DNA from: Burkholderiales bacterium
Lineage (GTDB): Bacteria > Pseudomonadota > Gammaproteobacteria > Burkholderiales > JBEEJL01
Length of the DNA: 64,000 nt
Direction: 5' to 3'
Assembly: GCA_049695115.1 (NCBI GenBank)
Contig: JBAVRP010000070.1
Span: 63-64,062, forward strand
Shown here: piece by piece, positions 5,778 through 42,626 of the stretch
How the letters are laid out: every line of letters starts with the position of its first letter
How positions within the stretch are numbered: position 1 is the first letter of the stretch
The notes under the pieces: generated by a model
What the model was told of the DNA's origin: nothing
The model's input: only the letters and a program-made list of their open reading frames with translations
The model's database searches: none
Program-made: the position numbers and the translations under genes

Positions 5778-7171
5778 AAACGCGCTCCCGTCGCCACTTT
5801 GGGTTTAAGCGAGAGCACGGCTTGAATGAACATTTCAGCGCGCTGAACATAATTGCGGAACATATCGAAACTGGCGCAGGCGGGTGACAGCAACACCGCG
5901 TCGCCGGGCTGCGCGGCGGCGAAACTTTTATTCACTGCATCGGGCATATCGCTGGCCCGCGACAGCGGCACGCCGCTGGTTTTCAGCGCAGCGGCTATGA
6001 GTTCGGCATCGCGGCCGATAAGCACGACTGCGCGGGCGTGGTTTTTAACCGGTTCGTTCAGCGGTGTAAAATCCTGCCCCTTGCCGTCGCCGCCGGCGAT
6101 CAACACCACAGGTTGTGACATACCGTTCAACGCCGCGACGGTTGCACCGACGTTAGTACCTTTGGAGTCATCGTAGAAAATAACGTCGCTGATCCGCGCG
6201 ACTTCTTGCACGCGATGGGGCAAACCTTTGAAATTTTTCAGCGCGGCGATAAGAGGCGCAGGTGCCAAATTGATCGCGCGACACAACGCCAAAGCAGCTA
6301 ATGCGTTCACTGCGTTGTGTAAGCCGTTTATATGTAACTCATTGATTATAATTAATTTTTTATATCCTTGATAAAGGCCTTTAATGCCTTCAACTTCGCT
6401 GATGCCGAATTCATTTTCATTTTTCGCTTTGTCTAATCCGAAAGTCACAGCGCGCTGTGTGCTCACCCGCATGCTCATGGTCAGCGCGTCATCGCGATTC
6501 AAAACTTGCGTGGTGCAATGGCGAAAAATCCGCGCTTTCGCCATCGCATAGTCGGCGATGTCGGCGTAGCGATCCATGTGATCCTGGCTGATGTTGAGTA
6601 CAGTGGCAGCATCGATTTTCAAATTAGCTGTGGTTTCCAATTGAAAGCTCGATAGTTCCAACACGTAAACATCGGGCTGGCCGCTCACTTCCGCTTCCAT
6701 TAGCGCATCGAGCACCGGCAAGCCGATGTTGCCTGCAACCACGGTTTTCAAACTCGCGGCTTGGCACATTTCGCCGACCAAAGTAGTGACGGTCGTTTTG
6801 CCATTGCTGCCGGTGATAGCGAGGACTTTTGGCCGCGCCGCCAATGCATTCAGTGCTTGTGCGAACAATTCTACGTCGCCGACTACCGGCACTTTAGCGG
6901 CAATGGCTTTTGCCAACAGCGGTTCGGAAAGCGGTACACCGGGGCTGATGGCGATGAGGTCAATACCAGTGAAACTGGAGGCTTTAAACGGGCCGGTGTC
7001 GAGCGGGGTCGAAGGGACAAGCTTGCCCAGCTCGCGCGCCAGCGGCGGATTGTCGCGCGAGTCGGCGACGCGCACATGCGCGCCGCGCGCATACAACCAG
7101 CGTGCCATCGACAGGCCGGTGTCGCCGAGACCCAACACTAACACGCGTTTATTTTTCAGTTCCAATGTCAT
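5774..7171 (-). CDS. murD: UDP-N-acetylmuramoylalanine--D-glutamate ligase
   Basis: 465 aa. [11 protein letters not shown]-terminus, [11 protein letters not shown]-loop, [15 protein letters not shown] overlaps with mraY (7171) and ftsW (5774-5777). Confidence 0.95.
6335..6347 (-). repeat. AT-rich element core AATCAATGAGTTA inside the murD coding sequence
   Basis: The 17-mer TATAATCAATGAGTTAC (6334-6350, minus) is identical to 46850-46866 (+). Confidence 0.75.
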
Positions 7172-8262
7172 CAGCGCAATTTCAAAGTCGATAAACCGAT
7201 CAATACCAAAATCATGGTGATAATCCAGAAGCGGACCACCACTTGGGTTTCTTTCCAGCCTTTTAATTCGTAATGATGGTGTAGCGGCGCCATACGGAAT
7301 ACGCGCTTGCCGGTGAGCTTGAAACTCGCAACTTGTATGATGACCGACAGGGTTTCCACCACGAAAACACCGCCCATAATCAGCAACACAATTTCCTGAC
7401 GCACGATCACGGCGACCACGCCGAGTGCGCCGCCAAGCGCCAGCGCGCCAACGTCGCCCATGAACACTTCAGCCGGATAAGCGTTGAACCAGAGAAAGCC
7501 GAGACCCGCGCCGCCTAGGGCGGCGCAAAAAATCATCAACTCACCCGCGCCGGGTATATAAGGCAAGAATAAATATTTGGAATAATCGACGCGGCCGGTG
7601 ACATAGGCGAATACCGCGAGACCGCTGGCGACCATGACAGTCGGCATAATGGCGAGGCCGTCGAGACCGTCGGTGAGATTGACCGCGTTGCTGGAGCCGA
7701 CTATGACAAAAAAAGCCAGGATGATAAAACCGATGGGTCCCAAAGGGATGGCCACGGTTTTGATAAATGGCAATATGAGTTCCGTGTGCTGCGGCAGCTT
7801 GGCGCTATAGGCAAGAAATGCCGCGACCGACACGCCGATCATCGTTTGCCACAGCAGTTTGGAGCTTGCCGACAAACCCTTGGGGTTGCGGTACACAACT
7901 TTGCGGTAGTCATCGACCCAGCCGATGGCGCCAAAACCGAGTGTAGTGATTATCACCGCCCATACGTAATGGTTGGTAAGGTCGCACCAGAGCAAAGTCG
8001 CGGCGGCGATGGAAACCAGGATAAGCGCGCCGCCCATGGTCGGCGTGCCGGCTTTGGTGAGATGGCTTTGCGGCCCGTCGTCGCGTACCGACTGGCCGAT
8101 TTTCATTTGCGCCAGTTTGCGGATCATGTACGGGCCGACGAGGAAGGAAATGATCAACGCCGTCATCATCGCCAATACCGCGCGCAGAGTAATGTAGTTG
8201 AATACATTGAATGCGCGGATGCCGTGTTCTTTAGCCAGCCATTGGAATAGTTCGAGCAGCAT
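7171..8262 (-). CDS. mraY: phospho-N-acetylmuramoyl-pentapeptide transferase
   Basis: The ORF track starts at 8328. I prefer the ATG at 8262 ([10 protein letters not shown]), directly after the murF stop. MraY motifs are present ([38 protein letters not shown]). Confidence 0.94.
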
Positions 8263-34449: not shown

Positions 34450-35277
34450 ATGCTTTATCCAGAATTATTCAAGTCACTCGAAAAAGCCCGCTGGGATTTA
34501 ACTCAGGATGTGCCGTGGGATGAATTCAACCCGGCGCTACTCTCCGACGAGCAGGCGCAAACGGTGAGAATGAACGCCATCACCGAATGGTCGGCGCTGC
34601 CGGCAGTGGAAATGTTTTTGCGCGATAATCAAGATGACAGTGATTTTTCCGCCTTCATGTCCATCTGGTTTTATGAAGAGCAAAAACATTCGCTGGTGTT
34701 GATGGAATATCTGCGCCGCTTTCGCCCGGAACTTGTGCCAACCGAAGAAGAGTTACATGCGGTGCGTTTTGAGTTCGACCCCGCGCCGCCGCTGGAAACC
34801 CTGATGCTGCATTTCTGCGGTGAACTGCGCCTGACGCAATGGTATCGCCGCGCGTCGGAATGGCACACCGAACCGCTGATTAAAAAAATCTACGAATTGA
34901 TTTCCAAAGACGAAGCCCGTCACGGCGGCGCTTATCTCAAATACATGAAGCGTGCGATAGAAAAATCCGGTGATGCCGCGCGCGCCGCGTTCGCCAAGGT
35001 AGGTGTGCTGATGGCGAGTAGCGGACGCAGCGGCAAACCGCTGCACCCGACCAATTTGCATGTGAACGAAAAATTATTCCCCAACGACACGGTGCAAAGC
35101 CGCTTGCCTGATCCGGATTGGCTGGAACATTGGCTGGATAAACAGATACAATTCGACAAGGATTGCGAGCAACGCGTGGTCGGCGGCATTTTGCGCAACT
35201 TGTCCAGCTTGTTCGGCCGCCCATTTGAAACTGTCGCTGACCTCAATCGCTTTCGCAAAGAATTGAAACCAGCATGA
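34450..35277 (+). CDS. ferritin-like diiron-carboxylate protein (acyl-ACP-desaturase-like fold)
   Basis: 275 aa with two ExxH motifs (YEEQKH, DEARH). Divergent from litR. Confidence 0.7.
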   Translation: MLYPELFKSLEKARWDLTQDVPWDEFNPALLSDEQAQTVRMNAITEWSALPAVEMFLRDNQDDSDFSAFMSIWFYEEQKHSLVLMEYLRRFRPELVPTEEELHAVRFEFDPAPPLETLMLHFCGELRLTQWYRRASEWHTEPLIKKIYELISKDEARHGGAYLKYMKRAIEKSGDAARAAFAKVGVLMASSGRSGKPLHPTNLHVNEKLFPNDTVQSRLPDPDWLEHWLDKQIQFDKDCEQRVVGGILRNLSSLFGRPFETVADLNRFRKELKPA

Positions 35278-35762
35278 ATTTCCCTGTACCGGAATTTGAA
35301 AAAAAAATCTGCGAGCCTGGGCAGATCCCATCGCAGCTGGTGGAAATGAAACGGCCGCTGGTTTTCACCAATGGTTGTTTTGATATTTTGCATCGCGGCC
35401 ATGTGACGTATCTCGCGCAGGCGGCGGCTCTTGGCGTGTCTTTAGTTGTGGCGTTGAATACCGATGCATCGGTAAAACGCCAGGGCAAGGGTGATGACCG
35501 GCCGATCAACCCGTTGGAAGATCGCCTGGCCGTGATTGCCTCTCTTGACAGCGTGTCGCTGGTCACCTGGTTCGATGAAGATACGCCGTTGAATGTCATT
35601 CTGGCCACTAAGCCCGATATATTGGTCAAAGGCGGCGACTGGTCAACGGAAAAAATCGTCGGCGCCAGGGAAGTGCAGGCATGGGGCGGCAAGGTTTATT
35701 CGATTCCCTTCCGGCATGCCCGCTCGACAACAGCGACGCTGAATAAAATCCGCTCCCCTTAG
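35274..35762 (+). CDS. hldC: D-glycero-beta-D-manno-heptose 1-phosphate adenylyltransferase (RfaE domain II / HldC)
   Basis: 162 aa. Cytidylyltransferase motif NGCFDILHRGHVTYL. ATGA overlap with the upstream gene. Confidence 0.9.
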   Translation: MNFPVPEFEKKICEPGQIPSQLVEMKRPLVFTNGCFDILHRGHVTYLAQAAALGVSLVVALNTDASVKRQGKGDDRPINPLEDRLAVIASLDSVSLVTWFDEDTPLNVILATKPDILVKGGDWSTEKIVGAREVQAWGGKVYSIPFRHARSTTATLNKIRSP

Positions 35763-35840
35763 CCTTTTCCCTGCGCGCTTTCGCCTGCGCCGCCCATCCT
35801 TTACAATGCGTCATCAATCAAGTTGATTCATTGGAGTTTC

Positions 35841-37064
35841 ATGCCCGTTAATTTGCCACCGTTGCACGCCGCCGATTTGCTTCCCGTCAAGGGCGTCACG
35901 CTCGGCTTCGCCGAAGCTCATATCAAAAAGCCGAACCGCAAAGATTTGCTGGTGATTTCCTTGGCGCAAAATGCAACGGTTAGCGGCGTGTTCACGCAAA
36001 ACCGTTTTTGCGCCGCGCCGGTGACGCTGTGCCGCGAACACCTGAAATCAGGCAACATCCGTGCGTTGGTGATCAATACTGGCTGCGCTAACGCAGGCAC
36101 AGGCGAGGAGGGCATTCACAACGCGCGTAGCGTATCTACGGAAGTGGCGAGGTTGGCGGGTTGCAAGCCAGAGCAAGTGTTGCCGTTTTCCACTGGCGTG
36201 ATTCTGGAACAATTGCCATTGCAGAAAATTATCGCCGGTTTACCCGCCGCAATCGCGGGACAAAAACCCGACAACTGGTTTCACGCTGCGCACGCCATCA
36301 TGACCACGGACACGGTGCCCAAAGCTGTGTCGTGCCAGATTAAAATCGGCGGCGAGTCGATCACGATTACCGGCATGAGCAAAGGCGCAGGGATGATACA
36401 CCCGAACATGGCGACCATGCTGGGCTTTGTGGCTACCGATGCGACCATCAGCCAATCATTATTAAATGACATTACCAAACATGCCGCTGACCGCTCATTC
36501 AATCGCATCACTATAGACGGTGATACATCGACCAACGATTCATTCATCGTCATGGCAACAGGACAAACAGGCAAACCCATTATTGATGCGAGTAGCGCGG
36601 AATGTGGCGCGTTGAAAGATGCGCTGACCAAAGTCGCGATACAGCTCGCGCAGGCCATCGTGCGCGATGGCGAAGGCGCGACCAAATTCATGACGGTACA
36701 AGTTGAAGGCGGCAAGAACGAAGATGAATGCGCCAAGATTGCTTTTGCTATCGCGCACTCACCGCTGGTGAAGACCGCGTTCTTTGCGTCCGATCCGAAT
36801 CTGGGCCGCATTCTCGCCGCAATCGGTTATGCAGGTGTCGATGATCTCGATGTGAACAAAATGGAACTTTATTTGGGTGACGTATTGGTGGCGGAAAAAG
36901 GCGGCCGCGCGTTGAGTTACAGCGAAGACCAGGGACAGCGCGTTATGAAGGAAGCAGAAATTTTGATTCGGGTAAAATTAAACCGCGGCAAGGCAGAAAC
37001 CAAAGTATGGACCTGCGATTTTTCCTACGATTACGTGAAAATCAACGCCGATTATAGAAGTTGA
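35841..37064 (+). CDS. argJ: bifunctional ornithine acetyltransferase / N-acetylglutamate synthase
   Basis: The ORF track starts at 35823. I prefer the ATG at 35841 (MPVNLPP). Autoprocessing site [11 protein letters not shown] and C-terminus [16 protein letters not shown]. Confidence 0.95.
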
Positions 37065-37076
37065 ATAATTTAATAT

Positions 37077-37089
37077 AATCAAATGCTTA
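37077..37089 (+). repeat. AT-rich junction element core AATCAAATGCTTA
   Basis: Lies in the 29-bp argJ/DUF815 spacer, in the context TTTAATATAATCAAATGCTTACAAT. Confidence 0.8.
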
Positions 37090-37093
37090 CAAT

Positions 37094-37957
37094 ATGCCTG
37101 CCAATGTAGAAAAACTTATTTCCCGCGCCGAAAAACTCATCGATAAACTCGAAGCGTTAATCCCGGCTGAAGCGCCACAGCCAGATTGGAAAGCGTCGAT
37201 CGCGTTTCGCTGGCGGGTAAAAAATAATCGCGGCTTTATCCAGCCAGTAAAAAACCCGCATCACATCATGCTCGATGATTTGTGCGATATCGATGAACAA
37301 AAAAAACGCATAACACAAAACACCAAACAGTTTGTGCAAGGCAAACCCGCCAACAACGTGTTGCTCACGGGTGCGCGCGGCACGGGCAAGTCATCGCTGA
37401 TCAAAGCGCTATTGAACCATTTCGGCAAACAGGGTTTGCGCTTGATTGAAGTGGAGAAATCTCATTTGGTGGATTTGCCCGACATCGTCGACATAGTCAG
37501 CGCACGGCCGGAAAAATTCATTTTGTTCTGCGATGACTTGTCTTTTGATGAAGGCGAATCCAGCTACAAAGCGCTGAAGACAGTGCTCGACGGCTCCATC
37601 GCCGCCCAGTCGGAAAATATACTTATATATGCCACGTCGAACCGCCGCCACTTGATGCCCGAATACATGGCGGAAAACCTGGAATACAAGCACATAGACG
37701 GCGAAATCCACCCGGGCGAAGGCATGGAGGAAAAAATTTCCCTGTCCGAACGCTTCGGACTGTGGTTATCGTTTTATCCATTCACTCAAGACGAGTATCT
37801 CGACATTGTGCGCCATTGGGCCGCGCATTTCGGTGTAAAGAAAATCAACTCAGCCGAGTTGCAATCTGCTGCCCTGCTATGGGCCATCGAACGCGGCTCC
37901 CGCAGCGGCCGTGTCGCCTGGCAGTTCGCGCGCGATTGGGCGGGAAAACAAAAATAA
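37094..37957 (+). CDS. DUF815 AAA-type ATP-binding protein
   Basis: 287 aa. Walker A LLTGARGTGKSS and Walker B ILFCDDLSF. Confidence 0.8.
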   Translation: MPANVEKLISRAEKLIDKLEALIPAEAPQPDWKASIAFRWRVKNNRGFIQPVKNPHHIMLDDLCDIDEQKKRITQNTKQFVQGKPANNVLLTGARGTGKSSLIKALLNHFGKQGLRLIEVEKSHLVDLPDIVDIVSARPEKFILFCDDLSFDEGESSYKALKTVLDGSIAAQSENILIYATSNRRHLMPEYMAENLEYKHIDGEIHPGEGMEEKISLSERFGLWLSFYPFTQDEYLDIVRHWAAHFGVKKINSAELQSAALLWAIERGSRSGRVAWQFARDWAGKQK

Positions 37958-37960
37958 TTT

Positions 37961-38899
37961 ATGCCTGAGAACGAAGTCGCCGTTGCCGTCGCCATCCTGA
38001 TCAAACCAAACGGCGAGTTCCTGCTGGCGCAACGGCCCCAGGGAAAAGTTTATGCCGGTTGGTGGGAATTTCCCGGCGGCAAAGTCGAGCCCGACGAAAG
38101 TATTCTCGACGCGCTTCAACGTGAACTGCATGAAGAACTGGGCGTCGATATCGAGCGCGCCTATCCGTGGCTGACTATCCGCCATTTGTATGAGCACGCC
38201 AGGGTGCGCCTGCATGTATACCGCGTCACGCAATGGCGCGGCGAACCGCACGGCAAGGAAAACCAGGCGTTTCGATGGCAATCAATCGATAACCTGACAG
38301 TCACGCCCTTGCTTCCCGCCGCCGCGCCGATGATCAAAGCCCTGGCATTACCGCCGGTTTACGCGATCACTAACGCCACTGAACTCGGCCAGGCGGATTT
38401 TTTTCAACGGTTGGATCGGGCGCTCGCAAACGGGCTGAAGTTGATCCAGGTGCGCGAGAAGAGTTTTTCCCCAGAGCAATTAAAAAAGTTTGCCCAGGGC
38501 GTTATCGTCAAAGCGCATGCGCATAATGCAAAAGTGCTCATCAACTCCAATTCGGTTTTGGCGCAATCCCTCAATGCGGACGGCATGCATCTCACTTCAG
38601 CGCAACTTCTGGCGCTTCAAGAGCGGCCGGATTTCGCCCTTGTTGGCGCGTCGTGCCACAATCAAAACGAACTACAACAAGCTGAAAAACTAGGCTGTGA
38701 TTTTGTGGCGCTTGGGCCGGTTAAGCAAACGCAATCACATTCTTATGCAAAAATATTGGATTGGGAAAACGCAACTAAACTCATTCAAGACTATTCTTTG
38801 CCGGTTTATGCGCTAGGTGGGATGCGGCAATCTGATATGGAAACTGCGTTGACACATAATTTTCATGGCGTGGCGATGCAGCGGGCAATTTGGCAATGA
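37961..38899 (+). CDS. Nudix hydrolase (MutT-like) fused to a thiamine-phosphate-synthase-like domain
   Basis: 312 aa. Nudix box GGKVEPDESILDALQRELHEELG in the N-terminal half. The C-terminal half is TIM-barrel ThiE-like (LIQVREK..., ALGGM). Confidence 0.85.
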   Translation: MPENEVAVAVAILIKPNGEFLLAQRPQGKVYAGWWEFPGGKVEPDESILDALQRELHEELGVDIERAYPWLTIRHLYEHARVRLHVYRVTQWRGEPHGKENQAFRWQSIDNLTVTPLLPAAAPMIKALALPPVYAITNATELGQADFFQRLDRALANGLKLIQVREKSFSPEQLKKFAQGVIVKAHAHNAKVLINSNSVLAQSLNADGMHLTSAQLLALQERPDFALVGASCHNQNELQQAEKLGCDFVALGPVKQTQSHSYAKILDWENATKLIQDYSLPVYALGGMRQSDMETALTHNFHGVAMQRAIWQ

Positions 38900-38910
38900 T
38901 GGGAGATAGG

Positions 38911-39483
38911 ATGTATTTATTTTTCGACACAGAAACGACCGGCATTCCAAAAAATTACAAAGCGCCTGCGTCAGACTCGCGCAACTGGCCGAGGCTGGTG
39001 CAGCTTGCATGGCTGTTGGTGGACAAGGACGGTAATGAGCAAAAAAGCGTTGAACATATTATCAAGCCAAATGGGTTTTCCATTCCCGCCGATGCAGCAC
39101 GCATCCATGGCATTACCAACGAAGTAGCAGCGCAAAAAGGCGTGGAATTAAAGCTTGCGCTGGAACAAATTACGGCAGATTTCGCCGGGGCAAAAATTTT
39201 GATTGCACACAATATGTCATTCGACGAAAAGATACTCGGCGCGGAATTGCTGCGTACGGGATTTGCCAATCAAGTGGAAAGCATGAAAAGAAAATGCACC
39301 ATGCTGGCGTCTGTCGACTTGTGCGCAATACCCGGCAACTACGGTAATAAATGGCCGAAATTGCAGGAACTTTACAAAAAACTATTTCAACAGGAATTCG
39401 CCGATGCGCACAATGCGCTGGCGGATGTACGCGCATGCGCGAAATGTTATTTTGAGTTGAAACGACTTGGTGTGATGAAGTAG
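38911..39483 (+). CDS. DEDDh 3'-5' exonuclease (DnaQ/epsilon-like)
   Basis: The ORF track starts at 38890. I prefer the ATG at 38911 (MYLFFDTETTG). Exo motifs are DTETTG, AHNMSFDEK and HNALADVRA. Confidence 0.85.
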   Translation: MYLFFDTETTGIPKNYKAPASDSRNWPRLVQLAWLLVDKDGNEQKSVEHIIKPNGFSIPADAARIHGITNEVAAQKGVELKLALEQITADFAGAKILIAHNMSFDEKILGAELLRTGFANQVESMKRKCTMLASVDLCAIPGNYGNKWPKLQELYKKLFQQEFADAHNALADVRACAKCYFELKRLGVMK

Positions 39484-39721
39484 TGGAAATTCCTCACACT
39501 TCAATGCGGGCGCTGGTCAGCCTTGACCACCGCGCCGGTTTGCGTTGACCAGCGTGTATTGGAATGAAAATCGCGCCTGAATTATTAGGCTCGGCTGTCC
39601 GCTTTAATCGATTGGCGCGCTCAAACTGCTAAATTCGCCCCAAAGCTGCCCGTCGCTCCCCGAGGAAAGCGGACATTCCGGCGGTAGTACTCAGCGCCCC
39701 GGGCGCTACAATCGTAAGCGG

Positions 39722-40663
39722 TTACAACCGATCCAGCGGGCTGGTGACATGCCGTGTTACCTCTAACACGTGGGTGTAAATCATGGTCGTTTGCAGATTG
39801 CGGTGCCCGAGCAAGAGTTGAATTGTCCGAATATCCGTCCCCGATGCGAGCAGTTGAGTTGCGAACGAATGGCGCAGCGTGTGAACCGTCGCGTGTTTCA
39901 AAATTCCCGCCTTCGCCACCGCCTGACGAAACGCGCGCTGGATTGTGGCAGGCGAAATGTGCCAACGGGCAAGACGCCCGCTTTGTCCCCAAGGTCGACA
40001 TACCGAAGACGGAAACGCGAACTGCCAAGCGAGGGATTCGGACGCCTTCGGATATTTTCGTTCAAGTGCGCCGGGAAGCGGTGCAAGGCCAGCGCCACGT
40101 GCTCGGTCATCGGTATGTAATTGTGCAACTTGCAGCAGGTGCCCTTGCAATCCTGCTTGTAATCGGCTGGGAAGCACTGTTGCGCGGTCTTTCCCGCCCT
40201 TGCCACCGCGAACATTAATGGTCGAGGAGACAAAATCAACATCTTTTACCCGTAGCGTGCAACACTCCTCAACGCGCAGGCCCGAACCAAACATGACCTG
40301 TGCCATCAATGCCGTCATGCCAGACATCTGCGATAGCACGGCGGATACCTCGCTTGAGGCCATCATCACCGGAATTCGCTTGCGCTGCTGCACACGATTC
40401 AGGTTACCCGTCTCGCCCAGTGGCGTAACGAGCACATCTCGATAGAGAAACACAATAGCGTTAAGTGCCTGGGTTTGCGTTGATACGGCGACGTGGCGCT
40501 GAACGACCAGGTGATTGAGAAACTGCGTAACCTCCCCCTCGCGCAGTTCGCGGGGATGATGTTTGCCATGGAAGAAAATATACTGCCGAATCCAATACCG
40601 ATAGGCTTCTTCGGTGCGCGGGCTGAGATGCCGGCGTCGACAGACCGCATGGACTTGATCCAT
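39722..40663 (-). CDS. intI: integron integrase
   Basis: 313 aa tyrosine recombinase. N-terminus RRRHLSPRTEEAYRYWIRQYIFFH. The IntI-specific extra segment is present (ALERKYPKASESLAWQFAFPS). Catalytic residues are intact (GLRVEE, HTLRHSFAT, LLGHRNLQTTMIYTHV). Confidence 0.9.
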   Translation of the reverse strand: MDQVHAVCRRRHLSPRTEEAYRYWIRQYIFFHGKHHPRELREGEVTQFLNHLVVQRHVAVSTQTQALNAIVFLYRDVLVTPLGETGNLNRVQQRKRIPVMMASSEVSAVLSQMSGMTALMAQVMFGSGLRVEECCTLRVKDVDFVSSTINVRGGKGGKDRATVLPSRLQAGLQGHLLQVAQLHTDDRARGAGLAPLPGALERKYPKASESLAWQFAFPSSVCRPWGQSGRLARWHISPATIQRAFRQAVAKAGILKHATVHTLRHSFATQLLASGTDIRTIQLLLGHRNLQTTMIYTHVLEVTRHVTSPLDRL

Positions 40664-40822
40664 CAGGCGAGGCGGGGAACCGGGGTTAAAGTGAGGGGTT
40701 GGGCGAATTGGACCCCATAAGTGTCGCTCCTAGTTGAGGGTTAAATTCGCCACACTACATCAAAAGGCGCGATCTGTATTATCATTACATATGCGGACCC
40801 ACTGCCAAGCAAAATGCCAATG

Positions 40823-40835
40823 AATCAAATCGTTA
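40823..40835 (+). repeat. AT-rich element core AATCAAATCGTTA in the integron attI region
   Basis: CAATGAATCAAATCGTTACAGT. It overlaps the candidate Pc -35 box. Confidence 0.65.
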
Positions 40836-40860
40836 CAGTGAAACGACAAGTTTCTAGAAT
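40833..40860 (+). promoter_or_regulatory. candidate cassette promoter (Pc-like)
   Basis: TTACAG, 16 nt, TAGAAT, reading toward the cassette and 36 nt upstream of the attI core. Sequence inspection only. Confidence 0.3.
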
Positions 40861-40895
40861 ATTAATATCCAGATCGACGGATCCGGTGAATAACT

Positions 40896-40902
40896 GTTGG
40901 GC
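40896..40902 (+). other. attI recombination core GTTGGGC (GTTRRRY)
   Basis: Matches GTTRRRY and lies 12-18 nt upstream of the cassette ORF start. It is the perfect reverse complement of GCCCAAC at 41491-41497, as expected for the two ends of one cassette. Confidence 0.55.
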
Positions 40903-40919
40903 GCTCTGAAAAAGTGAGG

Positions 40920-41465
40920 ATGGCGGTGATCCGCTTCGGACTACTTGTTATTGCTGGTCTGTTCTGGACGCCATGTCTGGCAGAACCTCTTGTGACCATT
41001 GCATGCCACGAGCCCAAGGGCTCCCGTATGGAGTACGGTGCGTCGGCTCGGGAGCGTGTGCGCGCGGAGATTGACAAAAAGTCCGAGCCAAAGCCCCAAT
41101 TGAGGGGACCGACGAAAGATGGTTATGACATGAACCCCACTTTTGTCGTTGATTCTGGCAAAAAGAAACTTACTGTTACTTGGTCCGAGTCGGCGTCTGA
41201 CGTGAAGTTGAGAAAGCAACTCAAGGCAGCGAATTTGCCGGCGCCATCGTTGCCACCCACTGTTGAAGCCGATATCGTTTTGTTCGAGCCCGATCAGATT
41301 TCCGCGCTTCAGGTTACTCCGCCCAACGCGGTAACCATGTACTCGTTTTTTCCAAAGCTTGGCACCGCGTTTTTCACTACTCAAGCCCACGAGTTGAGCG
41401 GCAAAAATTCGCAACAGATGTCGGTGTTTTCAGCCTGTGAGTTCTCGTGGAACCGTCCACGGTAA
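40920..41465 (+). CDS. integron cassette ORF: secreted protein of unknown function
   Basis: The ORF track starts at GTG 40914. The ATG at 40920 has AGTGAGG just upstream. Signal-peptide-like N-terminus AVIRFGLLVIAGLFWTPCLAEP. No family recognised. Confidence 0.7.
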   Translation: MAVIRFGLLVIAGLFWTPCLAEPLVTIACHEPKGSRMEYGASARERVRAEIDKKSEPKPQLRGPTKDGYDMNPTFVVDSGKKKLTVTWSESASDVKLRKQLKAANLPAPSLPPTVEADIVLFEPDQISALQVTPPNAVTMYSFFPKLGTAFFTTQAHELSGKNSQQMSVFSACEFSWNRPR

Positions 41466-41490
41466 GGTGCAAGCGCCTTCGAGTAGGCGC

Positions 41491-41560
41491 GCCCAACCCG
41501 GCGCCGCACACGGACGCGCGCCATAAAGCCGGCGCGCGCCGGTGGGCTCTACGGTTGAAC
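41491..41560 (+). other. attC site (candidate)
   Basis: GCCCAAC (RYYYAAC) is at 41491-97 and GTTGAAC (GTTRRRY) at 41554-60, 70 bp apart. The internal arms GCCCA-AC-CCGGCGC (41491-504) and GCGCCGG-TGGGC (41536-47) pair with a 2-nt bulge. An alternative, degenerate R' is GGTGGGC at 41541-47. Confidence 0.5.
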
Positions 41561-41783
41561 GGCGGGTTTTCGGTAGGGTCCAGAGGATCATTTCAATGGC
41601 CGCAATTGGCCGGTTTTGTCGGCGACACAAAATCTCAATTGCAGACGTTGGAATGTTATTAACTAAAGATGGTCGGAACAAGCTGGGTATCGAAAAGGGG
41701 TCAATCCAAACCGGCACTGGTGGTCAACTGCGTCGGAATACGCACTTCAAGGGCGGGGATAGAACCACTTGTGCAGCCTGCAC

Positions 41784-42626
41784 CTATTTCGCCACGAGTT
41801 TATAGCGATGCACATCACACACCGCTTGATAGCCGATACTTAAATACATTTTATTGCTGACAGGATTCCCCACTTCGGCAAACAGGCAGGCGTAGCGTTT
41901 GCCGCTATCCAGAATGATTTGCGCCAATGCGGCGTTGGCGGCTGCGCCGTAGCCTTTGCCGCGTTTATCCGGCGGCGTGTAAACTACGGACACGCGTTCG
42001 GCATTAGGCGTCGGCTGGTTGCGCAATAACATGGAAACCGCTCCGCCGTCGTCCCACAAATACAGGCGCCTCTCTTCCAGCGCAATCAGCACCATGTCCC
42101 TGATGCCTTGCGCGTCGCCAAAATCCACTTCGCTGTCGAATGCTTCCGCCCAATCAGCAGCCTGTTTTGCATCGGCACGATCCGCGAGGCGAAGCTCACC
42201 CGTCACTGGCCGCGGAACGATGATTTTTTGCAATTGATAAATTCTTAGCGGGTAATCTTCAATGAAATCCACATTGCTTGCTTTACTCCAGCGGGCGGCA
42301 AATTCGCGCGCAGTCTGTTCATCGGCGGATAAATCGTCCGGCGACAGATTTCTCCGCTGCATGTCGTCGATCAGCAAATCAATCATCGCTGGCGACATGG
42401 ATGTCGCGTGCATCGGCTTGTTCGCTGCGAAAAATGCAGAGGCAACCGTCTGATCGTTGCGTTGGATGCTGGCGAAATAGGCGCAGCTGTCGTTCCTGCC
42501 GGGTTTGTCGCGCAAGCGCATGGAACTACCCAGCATGACGCAATGGGCGATTTCATTCTGCAGCAGAAATTCGCCGCAGGCGTTGAGAAAATCGGCGGCG
42601 CTTGGATGGTTAAGCAGCTTTAGCAA
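41784..42626 (-). CDS. GNAT family N-acetyltransferase
   Basis: 280 aa. The C-terminal acetyl-CoA motif is PPDKRGKGYGAAANAAL. Confidence 0.85.
   Translation of the reverse strand: MLKLLNHPSAADFLNACGEFLLQNEIAHCVMLGSSMRLRDKPGRNDSCAYFASIQRNDQTVASAFFAANKPMHATSMSPAMIDLLIDDMQRRNLSPDDLSADEQTAREFAARWSKASNVDFIEDYPLRIYQLQKIIVPRPVTGELRLADRADAKQAADWAEAFDSEVDFGDAQGIRDMVLIALEERRLYLWDDGGAVSMLLRNQPTPNAERVSVVYTPPDKRGKGYGAAANAALAQIILDSGKRYACLFAEVGNPVSNKMYLSIGYQAVCDVHRYKLVAK

Follow-up and report, generated by a model that had tools for sequence, protein, structure and literature searches.

A probable complete integron holding a single captured cassette in a Burkholderiales genome, and related copies of its integrase-attI region

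Complete integrons, taken in the IntegronFinder sense of an integrase gene (intI) together with at least one attC site, have in common an integrase carrying the IntI insertion, a divergent attI site, a GTTRRRY crossover, promoterless cassettes and a structured attC, and integrons are present in about 10% of beta-proteobacterial genomes (Cury et al. 2016, PMC4889954, IntegronFinder). Here we analyze a locus at positions 39,722 to 41,560 of a 64,000-nucleotide stretch of DNA (the window) from the Burkholderiales assembly GCA_049695115.1 (contig JBAVRP010000070.1, positions 63 to 64,062 of the forward strand), a genome of beta-proteobacterial type. We are highly confident that the locus is a complete integron, made up of an intact intI, a divergent attI and one captured cassette. 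It shows no difference in kind from the complete integrons described for IntegronFinder; it is unusually small, having one cassette, and the spacer between L' and R' of its attC measures 6 nt, not 5. It reads as a textbook integron, of the sort that standard software would call, and the analysis confirms an annotation made by eye in an earlier note on this DNA. Coordinates of the features are collected in Table 1. L numbers designate comparison loci or contigs; the copies of the intI-attI region among them were supplied by a scan of the collection with IntI and by later look-ups.

IntI scores 378.5 bits against TIGR02249, the NCBIfam model of integron integrases (cut-off 265), and stays below the thresholds of XerC, XerD and the other recombinase models of NCBIfam; a narrower integrase model, NF011946, is not reached (281 bits versus a cut-off of 435). 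It comprises the Pfam domains Phage_int_SAM_4, the SAM-like N-terminal domain, and Phage_integrase, the catalytic domain. Its closest solved structure is VchIntIA, the Vibrio cholerae integron integrase (2A3V), matched over the full length with an E value of 3.5e-68. In this alignment the motifs GSGLR, GKGGK, HTLRHS, LGH and IYTH are kept, and the IntI stretch ALERKYPKASESLAWQFAFPS aligns with the corresponding integron-specific insertion of VchIntIA, so that the integron-specific segment and the catalytic residues read by eye are both borne out. All plasmid-borne IntI proteins in PLSDB are less than 60% identical to the window IntI (IntI3, 48.9%), and therefore it does not belong to the mobile classes 1-3.

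On the other side of the divergent region, GTTGGGC occupies 40896-40902, 233 nt from the start of intI, and an ATG (40920) follows 17 nt further on. Comparison with relatives places the crossover here: homology of the window with L001, L002, L003, L004, L005, L178 and L181 ends at GTT|RRRY (40896-40902), a breakpoint in seven close copies that upholds the attI core with a GTTRRRY boundary proposed earlier. Pairwise homology with the close copies spans 39635/6 to 40902/3 of the window and no further. All of them retain ...GAATAACTGTT at the attI end, followed by GGGC, AGGC or ATGC and then by unrelated DNA, and compared base by base, the sequence common to all copies ends ...GGTGAATAACTGTT. The first cassette differs in each close intI-attI copy, which argues for recent attI activity in the lineage. 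These comparisons give the picture to be expected of a single attI that has its crossover within G|TTRRRY and whose first cassette changes from host to host. A second candidate for the 5' boundary, GGGTTGGGCG at 40696-40705, pairs with the R'' region at 10/10 positions; it was rejected because all relatives read GTTTGGC there, and thus the second GTTGGGC, at 40698, is a chance match.

The cassette itself is found in another array. By blastn, window 40896-41553 matches L087 6378-7035 over 658 nt with 93.8% identity. The 7.3-kb contig L087 has 14 co-oriented small open reading frames (ORFs) that lack Pfam matches, and 12 attC hits. The match opens at GTTGGGC, with the tail of the previous attC upstream of it in L087, and it closes at ...CTCTACG, where L087 goes on with the TTGGGC of the following cassette. 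Given these identical ends between different neighbors, the cassette is a discrete unit found in two arrays, and the circularisable cassette of about 660 bp suggested earlier proves to be a single attC-bounded unit of 658 bp with the same ends in L087. Homology breakpoints of independent sequences coincide with both predicted cassette ends. The complementarity of GTTGGGC and GCCCAAC, already seen by eye, extends to 9/9 positions (GTTGGGCGC at 40896-40904 against GCGCCCAAC at 41489-41497). Homologues of the cassette gene likewise adjoin attC hits, in L087 and, for the more distant ones, in L085/L086 (Sideroxydans), L090-92 and L081-84.

The site that closes the cassette was searched for with two attC covariance models, neither of which includes the window sequence. 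R1 was built from six attC sites of other integrons, with the R''/L''/L'/R' structure drawn by hand, and R2 from 77 R1 matches across loci, one of the 77 being the L087 orthologue. R1 finds 41490-41560 (+) with 37.5 bits (E 3e-9; runner-up in the 64 kb, 14.7 bits) and R2, run with filters off, finds 41489-41561 (+) with 56.6 bits (E 2e-13; runner-up 17.3 bits, opposite strand 10.1 bits), and for both models this is the only significant attC match in the 64 kb. In blastn, 41491-41553 matches, on the correct strand, attCs beside other intI genes in L076, L020, L048 (twice), L059, L031 and L080. In the alignment of the 77 sites 95.1% of the cells are paired, versus 79% when shuffled and 28-42% when the partners are slid, and compensatory changes occur in 18 of the 23 pairs, figures to be read knowing that the alignment had been fitted to the model. 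Folding of the bottom strand of 41491-41560, a check proposed in the earlier note, gives -24.2 kcal/mol (z = -2.7), and the R''-L'' arm is the one that carries the unpaired bases.

Could the palindrome be a terminator or a REP-like (repetitive extragenic palindromic) element that follows an ordinary chromosomal ORF and resembles an attC by chance? It is GC-rich, it lies 25 nt after the stop codon of the cassette ORF, and the fold z is about -2.7 on both strands. Yet no T-run stands behind the stem, the palindrome matches attC sites from other integrons in the proper orientation, a unit with the same ends sits in the L087 array, and ORF and palindrome alike are absent from relatives whose site is empty. 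We regard this explanation as refuted and give it practically no credence.

In L095 and L097, whose exonuclease is 82-84% identical to that of the window, the exonuclease and GNAT genes abut, without intI and without the cassette. Both have the gene order argJ, DUF815, NUDIX/ThiE, exonuclease and then GNAT on the opposite strand, and L097 continues with PCuAC, bioC, an outer membrane protein gene (OMP) and bioB. On the left, window 35002-39486 aligns with L097 4092-8576; on the right, L097 8579-8956 is the counterpart of window 41791-42168. This collinearity on both sides indicates that the window carries a 2304-bp insertion, 39487-41790, between convergent gene ends. The placement between exonuclease and GNAT genes given in the earlier note is hereby refined to a 2.3-kb insertion that L095 and L097 lack. 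Since these two genomes, devoid of intI, are also devoid of the cassette ORF, the ORF is not a core gene with those flanks; in the comparison across relatives that the earlier note had proposed, the locus varies and its first cassette changes from copy to copy. On this evidence the integron is a recent acquisition, not an old resident of the housekeeping region.

At this position the closest relative, L093 (88%), carries another island, and the site, which lies downstream of the exonuclease gene and varies among close relatives, therefore looks like an insertion hot spot. Besides large ORFs that lack annotation, the L093 island (L093:650-8650) contains a caspase-like Peptidase_C14 gene. In L094 an IS200-like Y1 transposase gene (L094:1128-1664) lies between the NUDIX/ThiE and exonuclease genes. 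Within the window insertion, two fillers flank the integron. The left one (149 nt) is related to L093 4328-4456 (score 67), part of the L093 island; the right one (178 nt) has no significant similarity to L093. An imperfect inverted repeat, some 60 nt long, has one arm in each filler (39491-39550 on the left, 41699-41759 on the right); it scores 44, versus 23.9 +/- 4.6 after shuffling, and 2 of 300 shuffles reach 44. The repeat contains TTGACCACC...GCCGGTTTG..TTGACC and brackets the 2.3-kb insertion. TTGACCA repeats akin to it occur in L093 4283-4360.

Inside the fillers lies a unit that we call the platform, composed of the intI-attI region and a short right end. Nucleotide identity to the window intI-attI is 96-98% in L001, L003, L004, L005 and L181, 92.5% in L178-180 and 83% in L002, which makes five to eight near-identical copies at 92-98%. 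Homology starts at the left, intI-distal end in L001, L002, L004, L005, L178-180 and L181. This end, (T)CGACCCAAAGC, is the same in all copies, and the DNA beyond it is of six kinds, the window included: L004 and L181 share one intI-distal flank (105 nt in L004) and L178-180 share another. In L181 this flank is plasmid-like, with genes for RepA_C, KorA and an antirestriction protein. The intI-distal flanks of L001, L002, L004 and L005 hold no attC sites and are thus not cassettes. On the right, window 41554-41612, 59 nt that open with GTTGAAC and close with GGCCG, recurs without a mismatch in L178/L179. There it stands behind the final attC of another array, one of two cassettes, and window and L178/L179 diverge right after GGCCG. 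That another array is followed by the same 59 nt confirms 41554-41560 as R' and 41612 as the right end of the platform; 41555-41612 is probably the ancestral right half of attI.

From these copies the intI-attI platform appears to circulate among environmental Betaproteobacteria-like genomes, at least once on plasmid-like DNA. More tentatively, and with doubt outweighing belief, the 1.3-kb platform (39636-40896 plus 41555-41612) may represent a mobile integron lineage, not classified so far, among environmental Betaproteobacteria-like bacteria, the array moving along as a unit. Its ends are fixed, (T)CGACCCAAAGC on the left and ...CAATTGGCCG on the right, with 83-98% identity over at least six unrelated flanks. 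We found no transposase or tni genes with the platform and no target-site duplication at either of its ends in two contexts; the ends, inverted, match at 11/20 positions (a hand count from the printed sequences), with no clear terminal inverted repeats. The PLSDB plasmids hold no further copies, giving weak integrase matches at best, and a scan of JGI metagenomes gave none, its best match being 68% identical. If such a lineage exists, it would move by a mechanism undescribed for integrons, candidates being mobilization in trans and recombinase-mediated insertion. In one copy, L003 (96% identical), about 3.4 kb (L003:10794-14251) interrupt intI at the position of window 39870-39874, with a 5-nt overlap at the junction. 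This insertion encodes tandem tyrosine recombinases (ORFs of 750 aa and 317 aa with Phage_integrase domains) and resembles an element of the recombinase-in-trio type.

The region between intI and the cassette contains candidate regulatory motifs. The outward promoter-like motif noted by eye, TTACAG-16-TAGAAT, is present as a sequence match, and the consensus scan reads it as GTTACA-17-TAGAAT, a candidate cassette promoter Pc. In L004 a 91-nt insertion in attI (L004:2320-2411, at window 40861) directly follows the putative -10 TAGAAT; a GGCAAGCTRCGGGGWATYGAAC-like repeat occurs twice within it, and it resembles a miniature inverted-repeat transposable element (MITE) or a REP element. In the opposite direction, the -10 of the candidate intI promoter overlaps a 32-nt block, TCTGTATTATCATTACATATGCGGACCCACTGC at 40773-40805, which is identical even in the 83%-identical L002, save one T/C position in three copies. 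This conserved block is probably a regulatory site. No LexA box (CTGT-N8-ACAG) was found within 40664-40900 with one mismatch allowed. The CTGTATTATCATTACA stretch was considered as a LexA box and rejected: its right half is wrong, and three relatives read CCGT. A match to the consensus of integration host factor (IHF), AATCAAATCGTTA, is indeed present at 40823-40835, where the earlier note had placed it, and it is kept in L002 though its free positions have changed. What does not stand is its link to attI in particular. The IHF-type consensus WATCAANNNNTTR occurs 20 times in the window, where shuffling predicts 3.3 and did not once yield 20 in 100 trials, and is therefore a feature of the genome; the sites are mostly AATCAA-N4-TTA (for example at 37077, 40823, 43111, 46853 and 58953).

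By analogy with the integrase family, IntI would bind attI as double-stranded DNA and attC as its folded bottom strand, and strand exchange would take place between G and TT of GTTRRRY. A circular 658-bp cassette (...CTCTAC(G)G|TTGGGCGC...) would have been inserted at attI G40896|T40897, leaving the ancestral right half of attI (TTGAACGGCGGG...) behind the cassette attC, as the standard model has it. The promoterless cassette would then be read from a promoter in the attI region with the use of its own Shine-Dalgarno sequence, yielding an exported, disulfide-bonded, beta-rich protein. The whole unit has been acquired recently and lies, as part of the 2.3-kb insertion, where the exonuclease and GNAT genes converge with their 3' ends.

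Is this integron still exchanging cassettes, and does it truly reside at this site? Several observations weigh against a complete integron that is functional and correctly placed. The window reads CTCTACG-GTTGAAC where L087 and all related attCs read CTCTAC-GTTRRRY, and R2 scores the extra base, G41553, as an insertion. The current R' pairs with R'' at 5/7 positions. Extra base and reduced pairing together suggest that excision may be impaired; G41553 could be a real 1-nt insertion affecting recombination or a homopolymer error of the metagenome-assembled genome (MAG). Among the sister copies, intI is frameshifted in L001, L004 and L005 and interrupted in L003, a sign that the lineage often decays. 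The -10 element of the candidate Pc is TGGAAT in L005 and TCGAAT in L002, and because of this variation the candidate is weakly supported. An integron that is real and yet frozen, its cassette exchange stopped and its single cassette effectively a fixed gene, finds support in the extra G before R' with the two R''-R' mismatches, in the damaged sister intI genes and in the missing LexA box in the promoter region; moreover, a single cassette leaves attI x attC as the only route of excision. Nevertheless, the intI of the window is intact with all its catalytic motifs, most members of the IntI protein clusters at 89% identity or more have the full length of 313 aa, and the frameshifts may be assembly errors of MAGs. 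Every close copy has a different first cassette, as recent attI activity in the lineage would leave it. We therefore consider a frozen integron rather unlikely.

As to the site, a second MAG contig (L182, GCA_049693875.1; 1-6563) is 100% identical to window 38903-41619, a segment with the exonuclease gene, intI, cassette and attC, and from window position 41620 on has SelR, FAA hydrolase and TctC genes in place of GNAT, PCuAC and bioC. After 13 divergent nucleotides a 15-nt patch (window 41633-41647, TCTCAATTGCAGACG) is common again. The integron may have been rearranged at its right end, or one of the two assemblies may be chimeric there. In the latter case the placement between exonuclease and GNAT genes could be an assembly artifact, the true site lying elsewhere, for example on a plasmid, and the plasmid-like context in L181 and the presence of the platform in several co-occurring organisms, a situation in which assemblers mis-join, are in keeping with it. 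Against such a chimera, the left junction with the exonuclease gene is the same in both assemblies, the window from 41791 on is collinear with the empty site of L097 within a few bases, and the fillers of 149 nt and 178 nt are unique to the locus and share an inverted repeat. A chimeric placement thus seems improbable to us, and we retain an insertion at this chromosomal site.

What does the cassette encode? In the alignment of the homologues their ATG stands opposite the GTG at 40926, which is preceded by GAGGA at a distance of 5 nt, so this GTG is likely the true start codon, giving a product of 179 aa. The signal peptide of the 181-aa ORF described earlier is there (…FWTPCLA|EPLV), but the start probably lies at this GTG. 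The cysteines C29 and C173 are invariant in the family, which is small, with 24 close homologues and 186 clusters (50% identity) among 1.84 billion representatives. The window protein has no significant match in Pfam, NCBIfam, PHROGs or the PDB sequences, and nine distant members, scanned likewise, showed no Pfam family of their own. A confident AF2 model from an alignment of 23 sequences (predicted local distance difference test score, pLDDT, 88.9; predicted template-modeling score, pTM, 0.78) has about ten strands and two helices. Foldseek against the PDB gives weak matches to surface lipoprotein barrel domains of the TbpB/NHBA type and to lipocalins, with template-modeling (TM) scores of 0.33-0.39 and root-mean-square deviations of 6.5-8 A. 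Membership in the lipocalins or in the TbpB/NHBA-type beta-barrels, for which a closed 8-stranded barrel with a TM score above 0.5 was required, is not supported, the TM scores being under 0.5 and no sequence match to these families being found; in agreement with the earlier reading, the protein has no assignable family. Our best guess from the model, held with low confidence, is an exported small ligand-binding barrel. The cassette thus brings into view a small uncharacterized family of predicted exported proteins that travels as an integron cassette.

Homologues of the cassette gene occur in other arrangements as well. In L081-L084 (5411-7612) a 70%-identical homologue has lost the attC of its own. 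Together with a 277-aa ORF it makes up one cassette, and attC hits lie at 6001-6071 and 7518-7612. This two-gene cassette is found in a chromosomal AFOR/MarR setting and also beside TraG_N and integrase genes, twice in a context like that of an integrative and conjugative element (ICE). An IS110-family transposase gene (L090:4039-5142, L091:5779-6882) lies inside an array that carries a 71%-identical homologue.

Table 1. Features of the integron and of the insertion that carries it (window coordinates)
Feature	Coordinates	Strand	Basis
Left filler of the insertion (149 nt), outside the platform	39487..39635	.	absent in L095, L097
Platform left (intI-distal) end, (T)CGMCCCAAAGC	39636..39721	.	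homology start in all copies
intI, intact integron integrase, 313 aa	39722..40663	-	TIGR02249, Pfam, 2A3V alignment
attI region with divergent promoter candidates; crossover G40896 / T40897	40664..40896	.	comparison with relatives
Candidate intI promoter, TTGGCA-16-(TG)AATGAT	40781..40808	-	consensus scan
Candidate cassette promoter Pc, GTTACA-17-TAGAAT	40832..40860	+	consensus scan, 9/12 matches
Single gene cassette, 658 bp	40897..41554	+	match to L087
Cassette ORF, predicted secreted protein (179 aa from GTG 40926; 181 aa from ATG 40920)	40926..41465	+	homologue alignment
attC: R'' GCCCAAC 41491-41497, R' GTTGAAC 41554-41560	41491..41560	+	R1, R2, blastn, fold
Platform right end	41555..41612	.	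identity with L178, L179
Right filler of the insertion (178 nt)	41613..41790	.	absent in L095, L097

Among the described systems, the locus shares features with both mobile and sedentary integrons. Like the mobile classes 1-3 (class 1 In0/In2 on Tn402-type transposons; IntI3), it has few cassettes, a near-invariant intI-attI in many flanks and fixed ends. Unlike them, it has an IntI only 48.9% identical to IntI3, and the locus lacks tni or transposase genes, clear terminal repeats, a target-site duplication and a resistance cassette. With sedentary chromosomal integrons such as the V. cholerae superintegron it has in common the closest solved integrase, VchIntIA, a cassette of uncharacterized function and a chromosomal location. 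It differs from them in holding one cassette where they hold tens to hundreds and in not being vertically inherited, since it is absent in relatives whose neighboring proteins are 82-84% identical; likewise, its attC type is common to many genera, whereas the attCs of sedentary integrons are species-specific. The sequences reveal the site both without and with the integron, the right half of the ancestral attI, and the cassette a second time in another array, so that the locus lays out stepwise cassette capture outside clinical integrons. An integrase-attI unit with fixed ends in unrelated contexts, one of them plasmid-like, points to an environmental mobile integron lineage. A similar situation was reportedly described by Gillings et al. 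(2008, J Bacteriol), namely a near-identical class 1 integrase-attI module in different chromosomal contexts and with different cassettes in environmental Betaproteobacteria. The integrase of the present locus appears to belong to a lineage different from this chromosomal class 1.

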